Below are positions 2,581 to 64,000 of a stretch of 64,000 nt of DNA, piece after piece. Below the pieces are notes generated by a model. It ran no database searches. It was not told the origin of the DNA and saw only the letters and a program-made list of their open reading frames with translations. Origin of the DNA: Perna viridis (taxonomy: Eukaryota); the NCBI GenBank assembly GCA_037379345.1, contig CM074517.1, positions 20,336,001 to 20,400,000 of the forward strand. The letters are read 5' to 3'. How positions within the stretch are numbered: position 1 is the first letter of the stretch; each line of letters opens with the position of its first letter. The position numbers and the translations under genes were made by a program.

Positions 2581-5500
2581 GTAAGTACAAGTATTCCCTA
2601 TTTTCTTTAGAATTCACCATGATTTATATACCAGAATACATTTTGAAAAATTGTTATTTGCCACAATATCAAAATTAATTTTATAATCAAACAAAAACAA
2701 AGTAGCTTTTTGGCTGACATATCATAAAACTAGTCTAATCCATCGTTTATAAAATTGTCAGTTTAAGGCTATGTGTGTTTCCCCACGAAGTTGGTCAACA
2801 TATGTTTTTTTTCGAAACGTTTGAATGGTGTACAACTAAACTTGACACAAAAATTAGGACATTATTTGTGGTTATGCAACGTCTTATTAAGAAATCCAAC
2901 AATGATGCAATTCCAAAATGGCCGCTGTTTAAACTTTGAATAAAAGATCTCCAGAAGAATTACAAAATCGAATGAAATTTAATTTTAAAAAAATGGCCGG
3001 CATTATCAGTTAATCGCTGGTAAAAATTTCTAAGAATTACAAAAACAAAATTCATTGAGGCAAGCGAAGTGATTTAAAATGGTCTTGTGAAAACCGGGAA
3101 CTCGGAAACATACTGTTACGCTGTGTGTAACAATTATTTATAGTTATTATCTGCTTTTGCTATAAGAGTGCTGAATATACAAAATGTATTTTATTTAATC
3201 CTGTCATCAGATATATAGATTTAATCTTCAGTTTCATGGATAATTTTACTTGTACCTTCAAATTTCTGCCTAGATATGCACATATTACATGTTGACAGCA
3301 GTTGAAATGTCATTACATGGCCTAGCTGATAATTACAAAACTAAAGTTTTTGTGATAAGCATTATGTTGATACAAGTAAAAAGTCATTTGTGCCTGGAAT
3401 ATTGAAATACTGTCATAGGCGATAGCATAAAGAGTTTTACGGTACAATGTGATGCTTAATACGTTTAAATAGAACAGTTCTTATATAATCCACCGAATTA
3501 CAATTAAATGATATCCCTTTATTTTGTAAAAACATACGATAATAATTCATAGACAGATTGAATGGATTAGCAACATCGATTCCAAGAACATTAAAAGCGC
3601 CAATTTCATTATAGGATTAAATATATTTTGTTATCAGAATGAATCGATGTGTAAAATCAGACTATTCACTCACAAATCAAATTAAAGAGGAAACCCCATT
3701 TTTGATCCTAATAATTCCAATCTTAAACAATCTGTAAAGATACATTTCTCGTAAAAAGTTATATTGATACCTGGAATTGATATTAAAAATGGCGACATTC
3801 AACCGACATCATGACATTGTTTTCGATATTCAATTAAGATAGGGGCAACTGCATGATAACTATTTTCTTGAAAATTTGATAAAGCAGATTATTATATATT
3901 TGTTTATACATTTATTGTCTCTTTCTTTTGCCGGAGTGATGGTGTCCATATATAGTAACAACGTGCTCATATATTTTCCCACTCGTGAAAGCTTGCATCG
4001 CTGAGGTGGTAGAAGATAACTTATCAAAGTGCAAGAAAAAGACATGTGCTATCAAAATTGGATATATTGGACTTATGTATATTTCATCTTATATTTACTT
4101 TTATGGTATTAAACAAGTTCTATTTATTTTAGAGACGGCATATTAAAGAAATTACTAATTGACAAATTAAAATTCCAGGTATGACTGCAAATCCTACTTC
4201 ATCCTTCGGTAAAATTGAGAAAACAACCTCTACAAGTACAGTAGTAGAAAACTTAACAGTTAGTACACGGACATCATCAATTATAACTGGTGCATTGGTA
4301 ATATCAAGTTCCCCAGGCACAAATGAAAGATCAGGTAGAACTGATGAAACAAAAACGTATGGTAAAACACCACTTACTAAAACAATAATTATAACAGGAT
4401 ACCTACAACATCGCCTACAACAGATATGCCTTCAACGCTGAGCACAACTAAAACACCTTCAACATTAAACACCAATGACGAAACAACGTCAAGAATGCTT
4501 GAAGATTATACAACCTCCGGTACAAAAGAAAAATCTACAACATTGAGTACAATACAAATTCCTTCTACATTCAGTATATTTGACGAACCAACGTCAAGTT
4601 CAATGGTGCAGCCTACAACATCAATTAAAATACAATATTCTTCAATATCGGGTAAAACCGACGATATAATTACGTCAAGAACACCTATAGACACCACAAC
4701 TTCGAGCATAACAGAAATATCTACAACATCCAGTACTACAGAAAAAATTACAACATCAATAGTAAGTAAAACACCGACAACACCAATCATGCCTGATACG
4801 CCGACAACATCAGGAAAATCTGAAGAGACAATAACATTAAGTACAACTGAAGGAACAGCAACATCTAGTTCAGAACATACATTTTTAACCACAAGTGCAA
4901 CTGACGAAACTTCAATGTCAAGTACATTGTGAAACATCCAACATCTATAACAATGCAAACACCATCAACAACAAAAGAACAACTAATGAAACAACAATTT
5001 CAATTACAACGGTAAAGCCAACTACATACAGTACAAAACAAACAACTTCAATATCAAGTAAAATTGACGAATTCACATCCTCTAGTTCAACTTTAGAACC
5101 CGCTATACTGAGTACTGCAGACACATCTTCAAAATCAGGTAAATCTGACAAAACAACAACGTCAATATCAACAGTAACGCCTACAACATCAATTGAAATG
5201 CGATCATCTCCCACATCAGGTAAAACCGGCGATATAATTACGTCAAGAACACCTATAGAAAACACAACTTCGAGCACAAAAGAAATATCTACAATATCCA
5301 GTACTACAGACAAGACTACAACATCAATAGTAACTGAAACATCGACAGCATCAAATATGACTGATAGGCCGACAACAACAGGAAAACCTGAGGGGACAAT
5401 ACCATTAAGTACAACTGAAGGAACAGCAACATCTAGTTCAGAACATACATTTTTAACCACAAGTGCAACTGACGAAACTTCAATGTCAAGTACATTGTGA

Positions 5501-5848
5501 AACATCCAACATCTATAACAATGCAAACACCATCAACAACAAAAGAACAACAAATGAAACAACAATTTCAATTACAACAACTACATACAGTACAAAACCA
5601 ACAACTTCAATTTCAAGTAAAATTGACGAATTCACATCCTCTAGTTCAACTTTAGAACCCGCTATACTGAGTACAGCAGACACGTATTCACAATCAGGTA
5701 AATCTGACGAAACAACAACGTCAATATCAACAGAAAAGCCTAGAACATCAATAAAAATGCAATCATCTCCCATATCAGGTAAAACCGGCGGTATAATTAC
5801 GTCAAAAACACCTATAGAAAACACAACTGCCAGCACAAAAGAAATATC

Positions 5849-5973
5849 CATCAGTCATAATTGATGCTGTCGATGTTTCAGCTACTATTGATGTTGTAGT
5901 GTTTTCAGTACTACAGAAAACACTACAACATCAATAGTAGCTGAAACATCGACAGCATCAATTATGACTGATG
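5849..5973. repeat. Perfect 58-bp inverted repeat with 9-nt spacer
   Basis: 5849-5906 is the exact reverse complement of 5916-5973. Confidence 0.95.
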
Positions 5974-8609
5974 CGCCGAAAACAACAGGAAAATCTGAAG
6001 AGACAATAACATTAAGTATAACTGAAGGAACAGCAACATCTAGTTCAGTACATACATTTTTAACCACAAGTGCAACTGACGAAACTTCAATTTCAAGTAC
6101 AATTGTGAAACATCCAACATCTATAACAATGCAAACACCATCAACAACAACAAGAACAACAAATGAAACAACAATTTCAATTACAACGGTAAAGCCAACT
6201 GCATACAGTACAAAACAAACAACTTCAATATCAAGTAAAATTGACGAATTCACATCCTCTAGTTCAACTTTAGAACCCGCTATACTGAGTACAGCAGACA
6301 CGTATTCACAATCAGGTAAATCTGACGAAACAACAACGTCAATATCAACATTAAAGCCTAGAACATCAATAAAAATTCAATCATCTCCCATATCAGGTAA
6401 AACCGGCGATATAATTACGTCAAGAACACCTATGGAAAACACAACTGCCAGCACAAAAGAAATATCTACAACATCCAGTATTACAGACAAAACAACAACA
6501 TCAATAGTAACTGAAACATCGACAGCATCAAATATGACTGATACGCCGACAACAACAGGAAAACCTGAGGGGACAATACCATTAAGAACAACTGAAGGAA
6601 CAGCAACATCTAGTTCAGTACATACAACTTTAATAACTAATACAACTGACAAAACTTCAATGTCAAGTACAATTGTGCAACATCCAACATCCATAACACT
6701 GCAAACACCATCATCAACAACAAGAACAACTAATGAAACCACAGTTCCAATTGCAAAGGTAGAGCCAACTACATACAGTACAAAACAAACAACTTCAATA
6801 TCAAGTAATATTGACGAATTCACATCCTCTAGTTCAACTTTAGAACCCGTTATACATAGTACAATAGACACATATTCACAATCAGGTAAATCTGACAAAA
6901 CAACAACGTCAATATCAACAGTAACGCCTACAACATCAATTGAAATGCGATCATCTCCCACATCAGGTAAAACCGGCGATATAATTACTTCAATAACATT
7001 AAGTACAACTGAAGGAACAGCAACATCTAGTTCAGTACATACATTTTTAACCACAAGTGCAACTGACGAAACTCCAAAGTCAAGTACATTTGTGAAACAT
7101 CCAGCATTTATAACAATGCAAACACCATCAACAACAACAAGAACAACTAATGAAACAACAATTTCCATTACAACAGTACAAAACAAACAACTTCAATTTC
7201 AAGTAAAATTGACGAATTCACATCCTCTAGTTCAACTTTAGAACCCGCTATACTGAGTACAGTAGACACATATTCACAATCAGGTAAATCTGACGAAACA
7301 ACAATGTCAATATCAACAGTAAAGCCTAGAACATCAATAAAAATGCAATCATCTCCCATATTAAGTAAAACCGGCGATATAATTACGTCAAGAACACCTA
7401 TAGAAAACACAACTGCGAGCACAAAAGAAATATCTACAACATCCAGTACTACAGAAAACACTACAACATCAATAGTAGCTGAAACATCGACAGCATCAAT
7501 TATGACTGATGCGCCGAAAACAACAGGAAAATCTGAAAAGACAATAACTTTAAGTACAACTGAAGGAACAGCAACATCTAGTTCAGTACATACATTTTTA
7601 ACCACAAGTGCAACTGACGAAACTTCAATGTCAAGTACATTGTGAAACATCCAACATCTATAACAATGCAAACACCATCAACAACAACAAGAACAACAAA
7701 TGAAACAACAATTTCAATTAGAACAACTACATACAGTACAAAACCAACAACTTCAATTTCAAGTAAAATTGACGAATTCACATCCTCTAGTTCAACTTTA
7801 GAACCCGCTATACTGAGTACAGTAGACACATATTCACAATCAGGTAAATCTGACGAAACAACAATGACAATATCAACAGAAAAGCCTAGAACATCAATAA
7901 AAATGCAATCATCTCCCATATCAGGTAAAACCGGCGATATAATTACGTCAAGAACACCAATAGAAAACACAACTTCGAGGAGAAAAAAAATATTTACAAC
8001 CTCCAGTACTACAGAAAACACTACAACATCAATAGTAGCTGAAACATCGACAGCATCAATTATGACTGATGCGCCGAAAACAACAGGAAAATCTGAAGAG
8101 ACAATAACATTACGTACAACTGAAGGAACAGCAACATCTAATTCAATACATACAACTTTAACAACAAGGAACAACTGACGAAACTTCAATGTCAAGTACA
8201 ATTGTGAAACATCCAACATCCATAACACTGCAAACACCATCATCAACAACAAGAACAACTAATGAAACCACAGTTCCAATTGCAAAGGTAGAGCCATCTA
8301 CATACAGTACAAAACAAACAACTTCAATATCAAGTAAAATTGACGAATTCACATCCTCTAGTTCAACTTTAGAACCCGTTATACTGAGTACAGCTGACAC
8401 ATTTTCGAAATCAGGTAAATCTGACAAAACAACTTCAATACCAACAGTGAAGCCTACAACACCAATTAAAATGCAATCATCTCCCACATCAGGTAAACCC
8501 GACGGTATAATTACGTCAAGAACACCTATAGAAAACAAACCTTCGAGCACAAAAAAAATATCTACAACCTCCAGTACTACGGAAAACGCTACAACATCAA
8601 TAGTAGCTG

Positions 8610-9119
8610 TATCTAGTTTTGCATGTACTACATGTAGATAATTATGCTCTCAAGTGGGCACAATAACAACGTTCTGTGATGCAGCCAATTTTCCAGATTT
8701 TTTTTTCAAAAGGTGTTTTGGAAATGTTTTAGAACACCAATCACACAACTATTGAGACTTACGAAGAGGTTTTTGTAACCAATCCATTAAAAAGAAATTA
8801 AACCTTCTGTTTCTGCCTTTAATTTAGCAAAATCCAACTTGAGAAATCCTCTACCTTTGAAACAATCCAAATTTTAAACAAACCTGAAATTTTACTTCAG
8901 AGGAAAAATGGCTTGCTTGTAGGTGTTTAGCTGATACCATTTAATGGTTAAAAGATGTTCAAATTGGTCTGTTGCTTTGCGATGATGTCAAAGTTTGTAT
9001 TTATATTTCATTATGACTATGAAGTTGCTTATTAGCTAGTCTGTTGTACTTAAGTTCCTTCAAGGTCATTTAGATACATTTGAACTCTGAGCATGTCAGT
9101 CTTAATTTGATAGAAATAA
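8610..9119. other. ~510-bp non-mucin insertion in the PTS exon
   Basis: Mucin repeat stops after tagtagctg (8609) and resumes at cagtactacagaaaacactac (9120). Confidence 0.85.
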
Positions 9120-10095
9120 CAGTACTACAGAAAACACTACAACATCAATACTAGCTGAAACATCGACAGCATCAATTATGACTGATGCGCCGAAAACAAC
9201 AGGAAAATCTGAAGAGACAATAACATTGAGTACAACTGAAGGAACAGCAACATCTAGTTCAGTACATACATTTTTAACCACAAGTGCAACTGACGAAACC
9301 TCAATGTCAAGTACAATTGTGCAACAACAATCAACATCTATAACACTGCAAATACCATCAACAACAACAAGAACAACTAATGAAATAACAATTTCAATTA
9401 CAACGGTAGAGCCAACTACATACAGTACAAAACAAACAACTTCAATATCAAGTAAAATTCCCGTTCTGAAGTTTTCAGTTACTATGGAGTTCAAATATAC
9501 TGTCGATTTTAATTTGCAAGAAAAAAGTATTAAATCACAACAGCTTCGGAACAATACACATGACGCTGTAAGTATTTCCAAACTTAAACAGAGAAAGATA
9601 CGACTTTGAATGATTTTGATTGAACTGGTGTACCCTTTAAGCCTTATTTCTACGCTTTGAAAATTTTGAGTATTAACATTAATAAAATCAAATGCATTTC
9701 GAAAAAAAATGAAATGATATAAAAAAAAAATAAGCCAGGACCAAAGATTAACATAAGGGCACTTTGCTCGGAAAACTTACACAACATATGAATACAAAAG
9801 TACTCAAACGAACATATAGAAAAAAACAAACTACGCGAATTCCATTGATTGGCATGATTTCACATTCAAATGTGTCGTAAAAAAGAAACTAAAGCATTTT
9901 TTTTCCATTTTTGGTCATATCTTGGAGGTATAAGGGTACCTGAAAATCATATGTTGGTTGCTCAGTAGGAGTGCGTAGGTGGTTAAGATATCTCAGCCTA
10001 GGTACTAAATTATTTATTTGATGTACACCTATTTCATTTTTTTTTTTATGATGCAATTCAGATCTAATAAAAAATATGGCTACTTTACCATTTAG

Positions 10096-11530
10096 CTTTG
10101 GAATTTTTATAAAGGATCTGGCGAACTCGGGAAAGCATTGAAAAGTTTAACTATGATAAAACTAAGGTAGGTTATTGAACGGTATCTTTTGTTTAATTCA
10201 ACAGTAAAATATAACTATAAGAACTTTTACCATTTAAAAACTAGCAATGACAGCCGCATTCTTTTGTTTTTACTGTAATAGATTTTGTCTATTTGTTTTG
10301 ATTTATCATATTTTTTTTTAAATCTTATTTTAGTTGTCTGATCTAAGAATTGTCCCTGAAATTATTATTTTGTTTTATTTAGAACCGTTCCATTGGAACA
10401 TTCACGGAAGAAAAGGAATGCATGGCAAAGGTATTTAGAGATCAAAATTTAACTTAATTCTATAAATGTATTATTTCACATTTGTATTTTATCGTTTAAA
10501 TTTCAACTTAGAACAAAGGCACCTCTAAGAGGGGCTGTACATGCACAACATTAATCAAGGGAACACAGGTTATAACGGTAATCAAAAGAATGTAATCCAG
10601 GGACAAAGACTAGACATGGAAAACAGACATACACAACAAAGAACATAAAGTAACTAAAATCATACATACAAAGTAACAAAAGCAAATGAGCAACTCGGAC
10701 TCCACTAAAAACTGAGAGCATGGACCAGGTACACCGGTAGGGTAAGCGTCCTCTGCTTTTCTAGAAACACCCGCCGAGTTGCTCATACAAAGTCAAGTCC
10801 GGGGTAGACGAGAGAGGAAAGGAAAACTATAACACGTGGAACAAATCAGTTTTCATGGTGCAGATGAATACACCGTATCGATCCACGAGTTCATGATGGC
10901 GGCCGTAAAACTTTTGTAGTGATAACTTCAATCTTGTAGCAACATAACCCTGCTCCAGAAGCCTATTTGTTAGAATTCTAGCGCGATACAAAAAGTCTGC
11001 GTAGTCTCGGCAAGCTCTGGCATAACGTAGGAGCTGTGATATGAATACTCCATACGCATGTTTTAATTTATGAACGTAGTGTTCAGTACGGTTCTTGTAT
11101 AAAAAGTTTTTTACTTCCTAAATAAGTCAACAATTGCATTAAACTATGTTTGTATAAATAAGCGTTTTGAATATGGCATATTTATCCATTTCAACAAACA
11201 TCTAGATGCAATGTATCACAAGTAGTATATGTGATTTTTCCAGGTGTTTCCTATTAGCTGCTCATATTTTTTTTTCTAATTTGTTTGTTTGTATGTTTTT
11301 TTCTTCTTTTTTTTTGGGGGGGGGTGTTTTTTTTTTATTGTTTTGTTTTTGTTTGTTCTTGTCTTTTTTGTGATATTTTATTTCATCTTAGTAATAGCCT
11401 TTCCGTAGAATATGAAGTTGACTTCTATCAAATTTTTGGAACGACGAAGGATGTTCATGTACTTTTAAATGATGCATTCACAAATAGCAGTATCAGTATA
11501 AATGGAACGACTGTAAAGATAAATCGGTTC
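10096..11530 (+). CDS. SEA-like domain exons of locus 1 (10096-10166, 10383-10430, 11392-~11530)
   Basis: Spliced translation KFSVTMEFKYTVDFNLQEKSIKSQQLRNNTHDA|LWNFYKGSGELGKALKSLTMIKLR|TVPLEHSRKKRNAWQS|NSLSVEYEVDFYQIFGTTKDVHVLLNDAFTNSSISINGTTVKIN. Strand/helix pattern and position between the PTS domain and TM fit a SEA fold (inference). Confidence 0.7.
10551..11058 (-). mobile_element. 5'-truncated Penelope-like element, family A: RT C-terminus plus 3' UTR
   Basis: Minus-strand translation AYGVFISQLLRYARACRDYADFLYRARILTNRLLEQGYVATRLKLSLQKFYGRHHELVDRYGVFICTMKTDLFHVL*. Confidence 0.85.
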
Positions 11531-11749
11531 AGTTTTGTAATAATCGTTTCACCATTACCAGATATGCTTAAATTTTAAATCTATCTAATAAGTAACTACT
11601 ACCGAATTATAATGATCTATAATATCATTGTACTAGATAGTTCAGGAAAAATATATTTCACTAGAAAAACTGTAAGCAAAGTTCACCTTATGATACTCTC
11701 GCTCCCTCCAAAGAAAACAAATTAGAAACCCCGTCAATGATTTAAGCAT

Positions 11750-12030
11750 TCAGAAAGAAAGACAAAATAGAATGTGCACAATATAATCATACTATTACGA
11801 GTTTATGAAAATTGCATCAGCGGTTTCAAACGAGTCGACCAAGTCCAAGTTTTTCTAGGAAACCCAAAATGTCATTCAGGTGAAAAACAAAATAGGAGAT
11901 GCACAATGGCATCATGAAATAAAAAATCTGTAAAAAGTTTCATCAAATTCCATTCGGTGGTTACAAAGAGATTTTGGATTAGAAGTGAGGACGGATGAAC
12001 AGAGATACACCAAGATCACTTTATACAAAT
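11750..12030 (+). repeat. Degenerate repeat, possibly a non-autonomous Helentron-type remnant
   Basis: Two diverged units (gcacaat...agttt(c)at.aaa.t.cat.c.g.ggtt.caaa) and a ggacggatgaacag motif; classification from recall only. Confidence 0.35.
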
Positions 12031-12456
12031 GCTACTATTCATAGTCCTACTTACAAACCTTGAATTTATTAGCGTAACTTGTTTTAATCTTGATGAAATA
12101 CTTTGGTTCGATTGGCGAACAATTACTATTCCCATGTAAAAGCCTAACTAAGATCTTGAATTGCACTCAACACATTGAGGAGCAGTAAGAAATATTAAAA
12201 TACCAAGAAACAAGTATAGCAGAAAGTGTCCATGTGTCGTATAGTAGAAAGTGTCCATGTGTCGATTTCTTTTACACCATAGCATATCATATGTCAAAGC
12301 ATCTTAGCTGTAGCTTTTGTTTGCGATACACGATTCAAGCCACTGTATGCAGTAGTGTAACAAATATGAATTGTTGAAATAAAAGATACCTAGTATCTAA
12401 ACCAACGAAATATGAAATTTAAAAAATAAAAATTTATATTATTAATTAAGTTTTAG

Positions 12457-12592
12457 ATACATCAAAACTTGGATTGTATTTGGGTGTAGCATTGTTAGTA
12501 CTGGTATCAGTTGCAACTGGATTGGCTATATTTGTGAAAATACGCAAAAGGAAACAAAAACTTGTTCAACGTAACAACCTGAGATTTCAGAG
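12457..12592 (+). CDS. Transmembrane exon, copy A (TSKLGLYLGVALLVLVSVATGLAIFVKIRKRKQKLVQRNNLRFQ)
   Basis: ttttag|...|gtattg; 23-aa hydrophobic run followed by a KIRKRK stop-transfer sequence. Confidence 0.85.
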
Positions 12593-49905: not shown

Positions 49906-50272
49906 AGAGAGTAATCAAGGGAATCAAGATTTTTGCGGAAATCAAAACGTGCAATCCAGGAAAAAGACCAGACCTTTAAAACCAGACACACATAACAAAG
50001 AACATAAAATAACCAAAAATAATACATTAAAATGTATAAACCAAACAAGTAAATGAGCAACTCGGAATCCACTAAAATAAAAATTGGGGGCATGGACCAG
50101 GTGCATTGGATTGGGGAGCGTATCCTGCCTTTCTAAAAGCACTCGCTGAGCTGCTCATAAAAAGTCCAGTCCGGGGATAGACGAAAGGGGAAAAGAAATT
50201 ATGACACGTCGAACAAATCGGTTCTCGTGGTGCATATGGATATACCGTGGTGATCTAGGAGTTCATGATAAC
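49906..50272 (-). mobile_element. Family A 3' fragment
   Basis: Reverse complement of the family A UTR (agagtaatcaaggg...gagcaactcgg...gagttcatgat). Confidence 0.8.
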
Positions 50273-53230: not shown

Positions 53231-53353
53231 GGAGGATATACTTCAAATGAATGTTCTCAGTATTAGTGGAGAATACAAATATGCTCTATTCATATTTTGC
53301 CTTTATACTATTTTGCATTTCGCAAGATTTTATGAATAGTCGACATGCACTTG
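53231..53353 (+). CDS. Two micro-exons of locus 3 (53231-53259, 53327-53353)
   Basis: Same lengths (29 and 27 nt), phases and flanking intron sequence as locus 1; translation EDILQMNVL|NFMNSRHALG. Confidence 0.7.
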
Positions 53354-54165
53354 GTAAGTACAACTTTTCCCTTAGACTAGACCATGATTTGAATACATTC
53401 AAACCAAACAATTAATGAAAAATAAACAAAACAATAATAAATATAAAAAAAAATACATCGTCTAGATTTTGAAAAACAAATGATCATAACCAACTCAATT
53501 TTCACCAATCTATAATCAATCTCAAAATTGATATCACTTTCGACATCCGAGATATCATGAATCATGAGACTAAATTTCCATATGCTGAAGCAGCCGTAAT
53601 ATTTCTAGATATGGACACTGATAATTTTGAAAAAAACCAAAGTTGTCGCGATTGTCATAGAGTTTAATTAAAACATTTAGTAAGGCACTCGTTCTGGCTA
53701 TAACTGAACGATACAGACGAAGTACATCTTTTGATACGATATATTAAACGTCTTTCTTTTCCATGGAAAATTTTGTTATGTCTAGAAGCTAATTAAACAG
53801 ACAAAAATATGCTGATCCGATTATAAGCGTTGTTTATAACTGGAAAGAAACTTCAGCTTTGCAACATAGCAACATCACACTATAAGACTTATTAAACACC
53901 TTCGTCTATTTTGCAATTAGACGTCTGTCGTTGGTGTCCGAAGTAATAGAATACTGTAATAAGTGATAATATAAAAAAAATTTGCGATACATTGTGACAG
54001 TTGCTACGTTTAAATACATGTTATAAAAATTACTTTTCTATATTTGATTAAATTAAACATGTCCATACTCTAATATTTATTACTGCTTCTATGACTTTTT
54101 ACCGTTCCCTTTCATTTTAGATAGCATTATCAATGAAATAAGTAACTGACAAACTTACATTTCAG

Positions 54166-57100
54166 GCATGACTTCAACAAGTTCATCAACAACTTCAACT
54201 ACAATACTCATAACATCAATTCCCAAAGAAATTCCTTCGACGATGAATAAAATAGAAGAAGCCCATACAACATCACATTCAACTCAAACTTATATAACAT
54301 TCAGTACAAAAGAGACAAATACATTATCTAATAGAACTTACGAAATCTCAATTACAAATACCACAGAAACCCCTGCAAAATCAAGTACAAATGTAAAACA
54401 ATCGAGTTCGAAAAATGAACCACCAACATCAAATAAAACTGAAACGCAAAAAACATCAAGTATCACTTCTGCAACAACAACATCATCTTTAGGAACCGGT
54501 AGAACAGAAAAATCTACAATGCCAATTACAACTCAAGAACGCAAAACATGGAGAACCAGAGAAACACCCACAACATCAGACAAAACTTATGAAGCAACCA
54601 CGTCAAATTCACTTTATAAACCAAAAATATCTTTAACCGCAGAAACACAGACATCAGGAAAACCTGAAACACATACGATGTTAATGACGACAGTGGCACC
54701 CGCCAAATCGAGTGCGACAGATTCACCTACAACACCGAGTTTCAACGAATTGACCACAAAAACGGACAGCGCTGAAACACATACAATATCAATTTCGACC
54801 GTAGAACCCACCACATCGAGTTCGACAAGTAAGCCAACAGTATCGAGACTCACGCAATCACTTACAGTTACAGGTATGACTGAAACATCAACAGTGTCAA
54901 TAACGACGGTTCAACCCACAACATCGAGTGCAACAGATTCATATACAACAGCGAGTACCACAAAAGTCACCACTGCAATGAGTAGGACTGAAATACCTGC
55001 AATGCCAATTTTGACAGGTGAGTCCACCACATCGACTTTGGAAGAAACACCTGCTTTTTCGAGTATCACAGAATCAACAGCAGAAATAGGTAAACCAACG
55101 CTGGCAGTATTAAAAATGACTGTCGAACATAAGACATCGAGTGCGACAGATACGCCTACAACACCGGGTTTTAAGGAATCAACCACAAAAACAAACAGGG
55201 CTGAAACATATACAATGTCAATTTCCACCAAAGAACCCTCCACATCGAGTTCAACAAATACACAAACAACATCCAGATCCACAGAATCACCTAGAGCAAC
55301 AGTTATGACTGACACATCTACAATGTCAATTTCAACTGAAGAACGCATCACATCGAGTTCAAAAGAAACGCTTAAAACATCGAGTACCACAGAATCAACT
55401 ACAGAAACAGATAAACCAACACTGGCAGCATTAAAATCGACCGTCGAACCCAAGACATCGAGTGCGAAAGATACAACTACACCATCGAGTTTCACAGCAT
55501 CAACCACTGCAACAGGCAGGACAGAGACACATACACTGCCAATTATAACTGAAGAGCCCAAAACATGGAGAACCAGAGAAACATCTACAACATCAGACAA
55601 AACTTACCAACCAACTGCATCAAATTCACCTTTTAAACCAAAAATATCTTTAACCACAGAAACACAGACAGCAGGAAAACCCGAAACACATACGATGTCA
55701 ATAACGACTGTGGAACCCAAAAAATCAAGTACACCAGATTCAACCACAACATCGAGTATCAAGGAATCAACCGTAAAAATGGGTTGGACTGAAACACAAA
55801 CAATGTTAATTTCGACTGAAGAAAGCACCACATCTGGTTCAAAAGAAACGTTTGAATCATCGAGTACCACAGATTCTACTACAGAAATAGATAAACCAAC
55901 ACTGGCAGCATTAAAATCGACCGTCGAACCCAAGACATCGATTGCGAAAGATACAACTACACCATCGAGTTTCACAGCATCAACCACTGCAACAGGCAGG
56001 ACAGAGACACATACACTGCCAATTATAACTGAAGAGCCCAAAACATGGAGAACCAGAGAAACACCCACAATATCAGACAAAACTTACCAACCAACTACAT
56101 CAATTTCACCTTTTCAACCAAAAATATCTCTAAACACAGAAACACAGACATCAGGAAAATCTGAAAGACACACGATGTCAAAAACGACAGTGGCACACAC
56201 AAAATCAAGTGCGACAGATTCACCTACAGCACCGGGTTTCCAGAAATCAACCACAAATACGGATAGGACTGAAACACATACAATGTCGAATTCAACCGAA
56301 GAACCCACTGCATCGACTTCGACAAATACACCAACAACATCGAGACCCACAGAATCACCTGGAGCAACAGTTATAACTGTAACATCTACAAATTCAATTT
56401 CGACTGAAGAACGCACCACATCTGGTTCGAAAGAAACGCTTGCATCATCGAATACCACAGGATCAACAGCAGAAACAGATAAACCAACACTGGCAGTATT
56501 AAAAACGACTTTCGATCATAGGACATCGAGTGAGACAGATACATATACGCCATCAAGTTCCTCAGAATCAACCACTACAATAAGCAGGACAGAGAGACAT
56601 ACACTGCAAATTACAACTGAGGAGCCCAAAACATTGAGAACCAGAGAAACATCTACAACATCAGACAAAACTTACCAATCAACTGCATCAAATTCACCTT
56701 TTAAACCAAAAATATCTTTAACCACAGAAACACAGACAGCAGGAAAACCCGAAACACATACGATGTCAATAACGACTGTGGAACCCAAAAAATCAAGTAC
56801 ACCAGATTCAACCACAACATCGAGTATCAAGGAATCAACCGTAAAAATGGGTTGGACTGAAACACAAACAATGTTAATTTCGACTGAAGAACGCACCACA
56901 TCTGGTTCAAAAGAAACGCTTGAATCATTGAGTACCACAGAATCTACTACAGAAACAGCTAAACCAACACTGGCAGCATTAAAAACGACTGTCGAACAAA
57001 GGGCATCGAGTGCGGAAGATACATATACGCCATCAAGTTCCTCAGAATCAACCGCTACAATAAGCAGGACAGAGACACATACACTGCCAATAACACCTGA

Positions 57101-60100
57101 AGAACGCAAAACATTGAGAACCAGACAAACACCCACAACATCAGACAAAATTTACGAAATAACTACGTCAAATTCATCTTATAAACCAAAACTATCTTTA
57201 ACCGCAGAAACACAGACATCAGGAAAACCTGAAACACATACGATGTTAATGACGACAATGGCACCCGCAAAATCGAGTGCGACAGATTCACCTACAACAC
57301 CGAGTTTCAAGGAATCAACCATAAAAATGGACAGCGCTGAAACACATACAATATCGATTTTGACTGAACAACCCACGACATCGAGTTCGACAAGTAAACC
57401 AACAATATCGAGACCCACAGAATCACTTACAGTTACATGTATGACTGAAACATCAACAATGTCAATAACGACGGTTCAACCCACAACATCGAGTGCAACA
57501 GATTCATATACAACAGCGAGTACCACAAAATTCACCACTGCAATGGGTAGGACTGAAATACCTGCAATGCCAATTTTGACAGGTGAGTCCACCACATCGA
57601 CTTTGGAAGAAACACCTGCTTCTTCGAGTTCCACAGAATCAACAGCAGAAACAGGTAAACCAACACTGGCAGGATTAAAAATGACTGTCGAACATAAGAC
57701 ATCGAGTGCGACAGATACGCCTACAACACCGGGTTTTAAGGAATCAACCACAAAAACGAACAGGGCTGAAACACATACAATGTCAATTTCCACCAAAGAA
57801 CCCTCCACATCGAGTTCAACAGATACACAAACAACATCCAGATCCACAGAATCACCTAGAGCAACAGTTATGACTGACACATCTACAATGTCAATGTCAA
57901 CTGAAGAACGCATCACATCGAGTTCAAAAGAAACGCTTAAAACATCGAGTACCACAGAATCTACTACAGAAACAGATAAACCAACACTGGCAGTATTAAC
58001 AACGACTGTCGAATCCAAGACATCGAGTGCGAAAAATACACCTACACCATCGAGTGCCACAGAATCAAAAACTACAACAGGCAGGACAGAGACACATACA
58101 CTACAAATTACAACTGAGGAGCCCAAAACATGGAGAACCAGAGAAACATCTACAACATCAGACAAAACTTACCAACCAACTGCATCAAATTCACCTTTTA
58201 AACCAAAAATATCTTTAACCACAGAAACACAGACAGCAGGAAAACCCGAAACACATACGATGTCAATAACGACTGTGGAACCCAAAAAATCAAGTACACC
58301 AGATTCAACCACAACATCGAGTATCAAGGAATCAACCGTAAAAATGGGTTGGACTGAAACACAAACAATGTTAATTTCGACTGAAGAAAGCACCACATCT
58401 GGTTCAAAAGAAACGCTTGAATCATCGAGTACCACAGATTCTACTACAGAAATAGATAAACCAACACTGGCAGCATTAAAATCGACCGTCGAACCCAAGA
58501 CATCGATTGCGAAAGATACAACTACACCATCGAGTTTCACAGCATCAACCACTGCAACAGGCAGGACAGAGACACATACACTGCCAATTATAACTGAAGA
58601 GCCCAAAACATGGAGAACCAGAGAAACACCCACAATATCAGACAAAACTTACCAACCAACTACATCAATTTCACCTTTTCAACCAAAAATATCTCTAAAC
58701 ACAGAAACACAGACATCAGGAAAATCTGAAAGACACACGATGTCAAAAACGACAGTGGCACACACAAAATCAAGTGCGACAGATTCACCTACAGCACCGG
58801 GTTTCCAGAAATCAACCACAAATACGGATAGGACTGAAACACATACAATGTCGAATTCAACCGAAGAACCCACTGCATCGACTTCGACAAATACACCAAC
58901 AACATCGAGACCCACAGAATCACCTGGAGCAACAGTTATAACTGTAACATCTACAAATTCAATTTCGACTGAAGAACGCACCACATCTGGTTCGAAAGAA
59001 ACGCTTGCATCATCGAATACCACAGGATCAACAGCAGAAACAGATAAACCAACACTGGCAGTATTAAAAACGACTTTCGATCATAGGACATCGAGTGAGA
59101 CAGATACATATACGCCATCAAGTTCCTCAGAATCAACCACTACAATAAGCAGGACAGAGAGACATACACTGCAAATTACAACTGAGGAGCCCAAAACATT
59201 GAGAACCAGAGAAACATCTACAACATCAGACAAAACTTACCAATCAACTGCATCAAATTCACCTTTTAAACCAAAAATATCTTTAACCACAGAAACACAG
59301 ACAGCAGGAAAACCCGAAACACATACGATGTCAATAACGACTGTGGAACCCAAAAAATCAAGTACACCAGATTCAACCACAACATCGAGTATCAAGGAAT
59401 CAACCGTAAAAATGGGTTGGACTGAAACACAAACAATGTTAATTTCGACTGAAGAACGCACCACATCTGGTTCAAAAGAAACGCTTGAATCATCGAGTAC
59501 CACAGAATCTACTACAGAAACAGCTAAACCAACACTGACAGCATTAAAAACGACTGTCGAACATAGGGCATCGAGTGCGAAAGATACATATACGCCATCA
59601 AGTTCCTCAGAATCAACCGCTACAATAAGCAGGACAGAGACACATACACTGCCAATAACACCTGAAGAACGCAAAACATTGAGAACCAGACAAACACCCA
59701 CAACATCAGACAAAATTTACGAAGTAACTACGTCAAATTCATCTTATAAACCAAAACTATCTTTAACCGCAGAAACACAGACATCCGGAAAACCTGAAAC
59801 ACATACGATGTTAATGACGACAGTGGCACCCGCAAAATCGAGTGCGACAGATTCACCTACAACACCGAGTTTCAAGGAATCAACCATAAAAATTGATAGC
59901 GCTGAAACACATACAATATCAATTTTGACTGAACAACCCACGACATCGAGTTCGACAAGTAAACCAACAAAATTCACCACTGCAATGGGTAGGACTGAAA
60001 TACCTGCAATGCCAATTTTGACAGATGAGTCCACCACATCGAGTTTGGAAGAAACACCTGCTTCTTCGAGTACCACAGAATCAACAGCAGAAACAGGTAA

Positions 60101-63100
60101 ACCAACACTGGCAGGATTAAAAATGACTGTCGAACATAAGACATCGAGTGCGACAGATACGCCTACAACACCGGGTTTTAAGGAATCAACCACAAAAACG
60201 AACAGGGCTGAAACACATACAATGTCAATTTCCACCAAAGAACCCTCCACATCGAGTTCAACAGATACACAAACAACATCCAGATCCACAGAATCACCTA
60301 GAGCAACAGTTATGACTGACACATCTACAATGTCAATGTCGACTGAAGAACGCATCACATCGAGTTCAAAAGAAACGCTTAAAACATCGAGTACCACAGA
60401 ATCTACTACAGAAACAGATAAACCAACACTGGCAGTATTAACAACGACTGTCGAATCCAAGACATCGAGTGCGAAAAAAACACCTACACCATCGAGTGCC
60501 ACAGAATCAAGAACTACAACAGGCAGGACAGAGACACATACACTACAAATTACAACTGAGGAGCCCAAAACATGGAGAACCTGGGAAACATCTACAACAT
60601 CAGACAAAACTTACCAACCAACTGCATCAAATTCACCTTTTAAACCAAAAATATCTTTAACCACAGAAACACAGACAGCAGGAAAACCCGAAACACATAC
60701 GATGTCAATAACGACTGTGGCACCCAAAAAATCGAGTACACCAGATTCAACCACAACATCGAGTATCAATGAATCAACCGCAAAAATGGGTTGGACTGAA
60801 ACACAAACAATGTTAATTTCGACTGAAGAAAGCACCACATCTGGTTCAAAAGAAACGCTTGAATCATCGAGTACCACAGATTCTACTACAGAAATAGATA
60901 AACCAACACTGGCAGCATTAAAATCGACCGTCGAACCCAAGACATCGAGTGCGAAAGATACAACTACACCATCGAGTTTCACAGCATCAACCACTGCAAC
61001 AGGCAGGACAGAGACACATACACTGCCAATTATAACTGAAGAGCCCAAAACATGGAGAACCAGAGAAACACCCACAATATCAGACAAAACTTACCAACCA
61101 ACTACATCAATTTCACCTTTTCAACCAAAAATATCTCTAAACACAGAAACACAGACATCAGGAAAATCTGAAAGACACACGATGTCAAAAACGACAGTGG
61201 CACACACAAAATCAAGTGCGACAGATTCACCTACAGCACCGGGTTTCCAGAAATCAACCACAAATACGGATAGGACTGAAACACATACAATGTCGAATTC
61301 AACCGAAGAACCCACTGCATCGACTTCGACAAATACACCAACAACATCGAGACCCACAGAATCACCTGGAGCAACAGTTATAACTGTAACATCTACAAAT
61401 TCAATTTCGACTGAAGAACGCACCACATCTGGTTCGAAAGAAACGCTTGCATCATCGAATACCACAGGATCAACAGCAGAAACAGATAAACCAACACTGG
61501 CAGTATTAAAAACGACTTTCGATCATAGGACATCGAGTGAGACAGATACATATACGCCATCAAGTTCCTCAGAATCAACCACTACAATAAGCAGGACAGA
61601 GAGACATACACTGCAAATTACAACTGAGGAGCCCAAAACATTGAGAACCAGAGAAACATCTACAACATCAGACAAAATTTACCAATCAACTGCATCAAAT
61701 TCACCTTTTAAACCAAAAATATCTTTAACCACAGAAACACAGACAGCAGGAAAACCCGAAACACATACGATGTCAATAACGACTGTGGAACCCAAAAAAT
61801 CAAGTACACCAGATTCAACCACAACATCGAGTATCAAGGAATCAACCGTAAAAATGGGTTGGACTGAAACACAAACAATGTTAATTTCGACTGAAGAACG
61901 CACCACATCTGGTTCAAAAGAAACGCTTGAATCATCGAGTACCACAGAATCTACTACAGAAACAGCTAAACCAACACTGGCAGCATTAAAAACGACTGTC
62001 GAACATAGGGCATCGAGTGCGGAAGATACATATACGCCATCAAGTTCCTCAGAATCAACCGCTACAATAAGCAGGACAGAGACACATACACTGCCAATAA
62101 CACCTGAAGAACGCAAAACATTGAGAACCAGACAAACACCCACAACATCAGACAAAATTTACGAAATAACTACGTCAAATTCATCTTATAAACCAAAACT
62201 ATCTATAACCGCAGAAACACAGACATCAGGAAAACCTGAAACACATACGATGTTAATGACGACAATGGCACCCGCAAAATCGAGTGCGACAGATTCACCT
62301 ACAACACCGAGTTTCAAGGAATCAACCATAAAAATGGACAGCGCTGAAACACATACAATATCGATTTTGACTGAACAACCCACGACATCGAGTTCGACAA
62401 GTAAACCAACAATATCGAGACCCACAGAATCACTTACAGTTACAGGTATGACTGAAACATCAACAATGTCAATAACGACGGTTCAACCCACAACATCGAG
62501 TGCAACAGATTCATATACAACAGCGAGTACCACAAAATTCACCACTGCAATGGGTAGGACTGAAATACCTGCAATGCCAATTTTGACAGGTGAGTCCACC
62601 ACATCGACTTTGGAAGAAACACCTGCTTCTTCGAGTTCCACAGAATCAACAGCAGAAACAGGTAAACCAACACTGGCAGGATTAAAAATGACTGTCGAAC
62701 ATAAGACATCGAGTGCGACAGATACGCCTACAACACCGGGTTTTAAGGAATCAACCACAAAAACGAACAGGGCTGAAACACATACAATGTCAATTTCCAC
62801 CAAAGAACCCTCCACATCGAGTTCAACAGATACACAAACAACATCCAGATCCACAGAATCACCTAGAGCAACAGTTATGACTGACACATCTACAATGTCA
62901 ATGTCGACTGAAGAACGCATCACATCGAGTTCAAAAGAAACGCTTAAAACATCGAGTACCACAGAATCAACTACAGAAACAGATAAACCAACACTGGCAG
63001 TATTAACAACGACTGTCGAATCCAAGACATCGAGTGCGAAAAATACACCTACACCATCGAGTGCCACAGAATCAAGAACTACAACAGGCAGGACAGAGAC

Positions 63101-64000
63101 ACATACACTACAAATTACAACTGAGGAGCCCAAAACATGGAGAACCAGAGAAACATCTACAACATCAGACAAAACTTACCAACCAACTGCATCAAATTCA
63201 CCTTTTAAACCAAAAATATCTTTAACCACAGAAACACAGACAGCAGGAAAACCCGAAACACATACGATGTCAATAACGACTGTGGAACCCAAAAAATCAA
63301 GTACACCAGATTCAACCACAACATCGAGTATCAAGGAATCAACCGTAAAAATGGGTTGGACTGAAACACAAACAATGTTAATTTCGACTGAAGAAAGCAC
63401 CACATCTGGTTCAAAAGAAACGTTTGAATCATCGAGTACCACAGATTCTACTACAGAAATAGATAAACCAACACTGGCAGCATTAAAATCGACCGTCGAA
63501 CCCAAGACATCGATTGCGAAAGATACAACTACACCATCGAGTTTCACAGCATCAACCACTGCAACAGGCAGGACAGAGACACATACACTGCCAATTATAA
63601 CTGAAGAGCCCAAAACATGGAGAACCAGAGAAACACCCACAATATCAGACAAAACTTACCAACCAACTACATCAATTTCACCTTTTCAACCAAAAATATC
63701 TCTAAACACAGAAACACAGACATCAGGAAAATCTGAAAGACACACGATGTCAAAAACGACAGTGGCACACACAAAATCAAGTGCGACAGATTCACCTACA
63801 GCACCGGGTTTCCAGAAATCAACCACAAATACGGATAGGACTGAAACACATACAATGTCGAATTCAACCGAAGAACCCACTGCATCGACTTCGACAAATA
63901 CACCAACAACATCGAGACCCACAGAATCACCTGGAGCAACAGTTATAACTGTAACATCTACAAATTCAATTTCGACTGAAGAACGCACCACATCTGGTTC
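54166..64000 (+). CDS. Giant Thr/Ser-rich mucin exon of locus 3, open to the window end (>3270 codons)
   Basis: Acceptor catttcag|GC ATG ACT at 54165. The ATG at 54168 and the codons at the window end are in the same frame. The ORF track lists no terminated ORF in this frame, consistent with no stop before the window end. Confidence 0.9.
54621..64000 (+). repeat. Higher-order coding tandem repeat, 2565-bp (855-aa) unit, ~3.7 copies, one unit 2442 bp
   Basis: Antisense ORFs recur at +2565, +2442, +2565 (55604, 58169, 60611, 63176). PK(I/L)SL subunits spaced 1017/480/588/480 bp. Confidence 0.95.

Follow-up and report, generated by a model that had tools for sequence, protein, structure and literature searches.

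How the extracellular part of a transmembrane mucin becomes separated from its membrane anchor, and whether one very small exon can set this, is the question raised by a 48-nt exon within the 64,000-nt stretch of Perna viridis DNA analysed here (the window). SEA-type domains are cut by two different routes. MUC1 cleaves itself, while Notch2 and human GPR126 are cut by furin, all in the same β2–β3 loop, and the resulting halves stay associated (PMC6954182). GPR110 and GPR116 carry GSVVV/GSIVA at that loop position, and the convertase consensus given for GPR126 is (R/K)-X-K-R (PMC6954182). A further study describes a Gly-Ser strain mechanism of self-cleavage and a Notch heterodimer that is made by furin (bioRxiv 10.1101/279315). 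According to two other reports, the mucin-like KIAA1549 has a furin site in a membrane-proximal predicted SEA-like domain (PMC13570299), and exon 6B of APOER2 adds a furin site by alternative splicing (PMC11293713).

The window contains three tandem paralogues, genes 1, 2, and 3, all on the forward strand, and the 48-nt exon belongs to gene 1. The gene opens with a signal-peptide exon (2508–2580; ATG at 2508, phase-1 donor, signal peptide read by eye), to which gene 3 has a homologous counterpart at 53281. A large Ser/Thr-rich mucin exon (4179–9567) follows, which is broken in the assembled sequence and ends in the N-terminal part of a juxtamembrane domain. Predicted strand 1 and the start of helix 1 lie at 9457–9567, a segment with hydrophobic alternation and a phase-0 donor. 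A 71-nt exon (10096–10166, phase 0 to 2) encodes the rest of predicted helix 1 together with predicted strand 2; an exon at 11392–11531, which starts in phase 2, encodes predicted strand 3, helix 2, and the C-terminal hairpin. The 3′ end of the latter exon is uncertain and lies at 11524 at least; the donor at 11532 is poor (2/9) and is the only phase-compatible GT, and under the filter used no small exon bridging the alternative donors at 11527 or 11537 to the membrane exon was found.

The membrane-helix exon (12457–12592; 136 nt, phase 1 to 2) includes a basic stop-transfer stretch. A tandem duplication, 12337–13017 and 13788–14454, is 95% identical between its copies and carries both this exon and a second open 136-nt version of it (13908–14043). 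Since the use of both would shift the frame, the two copies would have to be alternatives to each other, or one of them is unused. The cytoplasmic tail (14961–16966) is modelled from exons at 14961–15109, 15536–15600, and 16290–16347, with a stop-completing exon at 16965, and would have 109 residues, 11 of them Tyr; all tail exons are GT-AG bounded, their phases chain, and there is one terminal stop. From 9457 as far as the stop at 16965, each exon of the model is open, GT-AG bounded, and phase-compatible. Gene 1 has the layout of a transmembrane mucin, with a signal peptide, long Ser/Thr repeats, a single membrane helix, and a cytoplasmic tail.

The original prediction described a symmetric phase-2 exon of 48 nt with an RKKR site, followed by an NSLSV-type strand from which the preceding Gly is missing, and both features are present as described. 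The micro-exon occupies 10383–10430, is open and of phase 2-2, and is bounded by a T-rich acceptor with AG at 10381–10382 and by a GT donor at 10431. It lies between the exon at 10096–10166 and the one that begins at 11392, in the predicted β2–β3 loop. It encodes 15 residues, TVPLEHSRKKRNAWQ, which the two junction codons extend by an Arg on the N-terminal side and a Ser on the C-terminal side. The RKKR codons (10405–10416) form, by the published consensus, a predicted furin/proprotein-convertase site with the cut expected after the last Arg. The Ser-Leu-Ser-Val strand has no Gly before it in the inclusion form or in the skip form; omission of the micro-exon leaves the frame open, and the product then has a short Ser-Asn turn that likewise lacks Gly. 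The single Gly-Ser pair of the whole domain is 25 residues N-terminal to RKKR.

Because the loop is without Gly-Ser in both splice forms, self-cleavage is not expected, and the G-S-V/I-V-V/A motif that stands at the start of strand 3 in MUC1-type domains is found in neither form. Instead, RKKR stands a few residues before predicted strand 3, as in furin-cut SEA domains of the Notch2/GPR126 type, an assignment that depends on the predicted fold. The earlier proposal that a convertase has replaced autoproteolysis holds as far as a furin consensus between two amphipathic strands and a loop devoid of Gly-Ser go, and loses its novelty, since Notch2 and GPR126 are precedents. At the sequence level, a symmetric in-frame exon with a site and an open skip form also matches the APOER2 6B type. 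The R-x-K/R-R motif was found in 18 of 5,851 open 15-codon stretches from shuffled local introns and in none of the 3,277 residues of the paralogous gene 3 mucin. Among 85 decoy AG..GT open mini-exons, collected from both strands of the window with a filter that missed the true exon, one had a furin motif.

The juxtamembrane domain comprises about 125 residues over four exons, between the mucin region and the membrane helix. Read by eye, its size, its position, and its strand-helix-strand-strand-helix-strand pattern fit an SEA domain (110–125 residues), and the micro-exon falls exactly in the loop between two stretches of alternating hydrophobic residues, a pattern likewise read by eye. Human MUC1 has introns at the corresponding positions with identical phases (0, followed by 2 within an Arg codon). 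Structure models of single-exon fragments reproduce part of this arrangement. The 9457–9567 fragment forms a single helix over residues 10–36 and no strand, and the fragment from the 11392 exon forms helices at 11–15 and 18–29 and strands at 32–36 and 39–43; both helices and the last hairpin are obtained, and predicted strands 1 and 3 are not formed. The library and fold searches used single-exon pieces of 23–48 residues, which makes them weak tests. Pfam gave no family for three domain pieces and one sub-cut-off match to the membrane helix, the PDB sequences gave no match to the single-exon domain fragments, fold searches with a 48-residue fragment gave no match, and the ESM Atlas, queried with short fragments, returned unnamed short clusters of low recognition or nothing. 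From pattern and position, we consider with good confidence that the domain is SEA-like.

Whether the micro-exon is spliced in was addressed with sequencing runs assembled into contigs. Four of 23 listed runs, from four studies and all in the form of contigs, were mapped on 9330–12700; their RNA status is a guess, as none is recorded as RNA. In run X1, a contig of 239 nt with a depth of 2.4 matches 11390–11524 through its letters 105–239 with zero mismatches. The remaining length is accounted for if 133 nt of the downstream exon are preceded by the terminal 58 nt of the upstream exon and the 48 nt of the micro-exon, for a total of 239 nt. For the choice between the junctions 10166>10383 and 10166>11392, which had been put forward as a check, the inclusion model reproduces the X1 depth in 7/7 bins (0.25, 0.93, 1.02, 1.85, 1.02, 0, 0). 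The skip model fits 3/7 bins, as it expects zero where 1.02 is observed and cover where none is observed. This call is arithmetic on binned depth, and among the joint matches listed none spells out the junctions. A contig that passes over two GT-AG introns derives either from spliced RNA or from a retrocopy, which makes inclusion very probable, and we infer from the binned depth of this one contig that the micro-exon is very probably spliced in.

Both the upstream exon and the micro-exon are uncovered in runs X2, X5, and X6, which count neither way, leaving X1 as the only one of the four runs that is informative on the micro-exon. No skip form was seen among the contig matches listed from the four runs, and the only informative contig (depth 2.4) includes the exon. 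Contigs lose rare forms, and for this reason skipping is neither shown nor excluded. The donors of the upstream exon and of the micro-exon match the consensus at 8/9 and 7/9 positions, respectively, and the micro-exon acceptor has 13 T in 17 nt, which indicates that the micro-exon is not obviously weak or skippable. A length divisible by 3 is expected in about one third of exons. The idea of a splice-controlled shedding switch, which had been built on this divisibility, is left unsupported, with the only informative contig including the exon.

Other features of the depth profiles concern the neighbouring exons. Run X5 has a depth of 26 in the bin 11364–11476 and none in the neighbouring bins, and run X2 has 0.31 in the same bin and rises to 3.93 in the one after it; these signals possibly come from a paralogue with stronger expression that matches over a short length, or from low-complexity DNA. 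Run X1 has a depth of 0.67 in 12381–12493, where the membrane-helix exon begins, and zero depth in the bin that follows.

As assembled, gene 1 has no single open frame from signal peptide to tail, a point absent from the original prediction. A stop at 4439–4441 is codon 87 of exon 2, and frame tracking over the mucin exon gives 15 frame changes: 2 at a fold-back, 5 at an insertion, and 8 elsewhere (4397, 4924, 4977, 5492, 5545, 7173, 7637, and 8164). The fold-back is local (5853–5896, with the reverse complement at 5927, 7465, and 8025), and the insertion (8611–9119) is 509 nt of non-repeat sequence with no second copy in the window. Seven of the 8 changes elsewhere are single-base losses, and one repeat motif has the same 1-nt loss in 3 of its 8 copies. 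Identical single-base losses recur across the repeat copies at 4924, 5492, and 7637, and also at 4977 and 5545, as if repeat expansion had multiplied them once the damage was done or a systematic sequencing error had produced them. The insertion is flanked by a 38-nt near-duplication (35/38 alike), which may be merely mucin repeat. By its phase, an AG at 9129–9130 could be spliced to the signal exon, which would give a short but intact mucin followed by the domain; as an acceptor it looks weak. Taken as it reads in the assembly, this copy of gene 1 cannot encode the full protein, and any mechanism proposed for it would hold for an intact allele, or for the gene as it was before it decayed.

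The two paralogues differ in their state of preservation. Gene 2 (35062–40239) is degraded by stops and frameshifts and has no recognisable micro-exon; stops in its mucin and in its first strand mark it as dead. A possible remnant of the micro-exon near 35970–36010 is not above the shuffled background, the match of gene 2 to the micro-exon being insignificant (175 of 200 shuffles score as high), and R-x-K/R-R is absent from 35650–38480. The 71-nt upstream exon is undetectable in gene 2 as well (75 of 200 shuffles score as high), while the exons on either side of these two remain detectable (0 of 200 shuffles for each). Gene 2 cannot be used to date the micro-exon, because the 71-nt exon has been lost there too. 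It retains a Glu-Tyr-Gln-Arg-Leu helix start, which the helix-1 motif of SEA domains resembles. Gene 3 (53281–64000) has a mucin exon that is open for at least 3,277 codons up to the window edge, with 45% Ser+Thr and with 480-nt and larger nested repeats; its juxtamembrane domain is beyond the window. Of the three genes in the cluster, gene 3 is likely the functional one. Its open mucin exon indicates that repeats of this kind can stay in frame in the assembly, and this favours the view that the damage in gene 1 is real.

On this evidence, gene 1 is likely a constitutively furin-cut, SEA-like membrane mucin with its cleavage loop on an exon of its own. In the mechanism that we propose, the micro-exon is normally included and would add a 16-residue loop with a predicted furin site next to the membrane. 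By analogy with Notch2, GPR126, and KIAA1549, the protein would be cleaved behind RKKR by furin or another convertase of its kind on its way through the secretory pathway, in the Golgi, and the two halves would stay bound non-covalently through their shared sheet. Force or a second protease might then free the sugar-coated stalk, and the membrane part with its Tyr-rich tail would remain. The SEA fold, the two-chain form, and the shedding are suggested by pattern and by these analogies. We regard this reading, a constitutive exon that places a furin-site loop in a probably SEA-type domain of a type I mucin cut in the Golgi and held together until shedding, as somewhat better than even in its chances.

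Several other readings bear on parts of this mechanism. The micro-exon might be a regulated cassette, the inclusion of which would give a furin-cut sheddable mucin and the skipping of which would give an uncut one. Its 48 nt in phase 2-2, the open skip product without Gly, and the confinement of its content to the loop insert would suit such a role, for which APOER2 exon 6B is a precedent. The X1 contig that includes the exon, the poor fit of the skip model (3/7 bins), and splice sites that are not weak speak against it, and we consider the cassette unlikely. We give about the same low standing to the view that the domain is not SEA and that RKKR is a convertase site of the usual kind, placed in a linker, whose cleavage would release the ectodomain outright. 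The searches with 23–48-residue fragments, which gave no profile, sequence, or fold match to SEA, agree with this view, against which stand the size of about 125 residues, the position, the order of strands and helices, and the helix start kept by gene 2, which is like the SEA helix-1 motif. A domain that is SEA-like and uncut, with the micro-exon a young insertion and its basic run incidental, is slightly less probable still. It would be in keeping with gene 2, which shows neither the motif nor a significant micro-exon match, and with zebrafish Gpr126, which is without the site present in human GPR126 (PMC6954182). Gene 2 is, however, too decayed to judge, having lost a detectable 71-nt exon too, and the full consensus would arise by chance in about 0.3% of such exons and is here located at the loop where SEA domains are cut. 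Also improbable, and to the same degree, is the most far-reaching version, in which a plug-in furin exon, sited at an old intron position, has taken the place of SEA self-cleavage in an invertebrate mucin, the shedding of whose mucous coat is set by inclusion or skipping of that exon.

The alternative that carries the most weight is that gene 1 is a transcribed pseudogene or a null allele with the furin loop as a leftover and with no protein cut from the locus at present, a reading that overlaps with the constitutive furin-cut mucin and that we hold to be a serious possibility, somewhat short of an even chance. The early stop, the 8 frame changes outside the fold-back and insertion, the 509-nt insertion itself, and the 1-nt loss common to 3 of 8 repeat copies all point this way, as do the open repeats of gene 3 in the same assembly, the dead neighbour gene 2, and the very low RNA depth. 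On the other side, the exons after the mucin exon are all open and in phase, a spliced contig matches 11390–11524 without mismatch, and other individuals may carry an intact allele. Single-base losses in repeats can also arise as long-read assembly errors, and 7 of the 8 shifts are of this kind.

The closest relatives of the constitutive furin-cut reading are GPR126 (ADGRG6) and Notch2, in which, as predicted for gene 1, a basic convertase site replaces GSVVV in the β2–β3 loop, the halves are associated, and the site is present or absent among relatives. They differ in that their folds have been solved or modelled and their cleavage shown, whereas gene 1 is known from its sequence, and in that they are receptors and gene 1 encodes a Ser/Thr-repeat mucin. 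The alternatively spliced exon 6 of GPR126 is a linker outside the SEA domain, and in the part of that source available to us the loop is not described as a separate exon. MUC1-type mucins share with gene 1 the signal peptide, Ser/Thr repeats, one juxtamembrane domain, membrane helix, and Tyr-containing tail, and they differ at the loop, where gene 1 has a 16-residue insert instead of Gly-Ser. KIAA1549 is also a mucin-like type I membrane protein with a membrane-proximal furin site; it has three SEA-like domains and O-mannosylation, and the likeness is one of layout. APOER2 (LRP8) exon 6B is, like the micro-exon, an in-frame exon that adds a furin site to an ectodomain. APOER2 is a member of the LDL-receptor family for which both isoforms and furin-dependent cleavage have been shown, whereas gene 1 offers the inclusion form only.

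Both halves of the combined idea of a furin loop and a splice switch have precedent, because Notch2/GPR126 and APOER2 6B have been published. The combination of the two in an SEA domain, or a mollusc case, was not found in the literature within our coverage, outside which most subscription papers lie. If the proposed mechanism is true, an invertebrate mucin joins the SEA-type proteins that are cut by furin instead of by themselves, and a simple evolutionary route to this change is suggested, in which a single small symmetric exon is gained or lost. The furin-loop exon would be a tidy evolutionary example of a mechanism that is itself already known. The case would gain in importance were the exon regulated, as one gene could then give both a mucin coat that is shed and one that stays in place, and the natural isoforms could be used to test what SEA cleavage is for. 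Weighing against the importance of this copy, gene 1 is broken as assembled, and the domain of its intact paralogue is outside the window.

Searches for homologues with single exons or with the mucin gave no orthologue of gene 1 among proteins and metagenomes. None of 17 candidates for the 11392 exon and none of 7,997 for the gene 3 mucin scored, a tail exon gave no candidates, and in metagenome scans none of 594 pattern matches was confirmed and there was no exact match. Two matches from a search of 1.84 billion proteins were rejected as unrelated, being repeat-rich proteins alike in short repeated stretches only.

The intron after the micro-exon holds an interspersed repeat (10552–11061), of which the window has at least 5 further copies, at about 1221–1582, 24182–24480, 25512–26042, 29336–29655, and 49912–50269. 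The summed contig depth over this repeat is very high in all 4 runs mapped. A short reading frame within it resembles the end of a reverse-transcriptase element, and a short open reading frame on the minus strand at 31060–31356 resembles an integrase-core fragment of a transposon.
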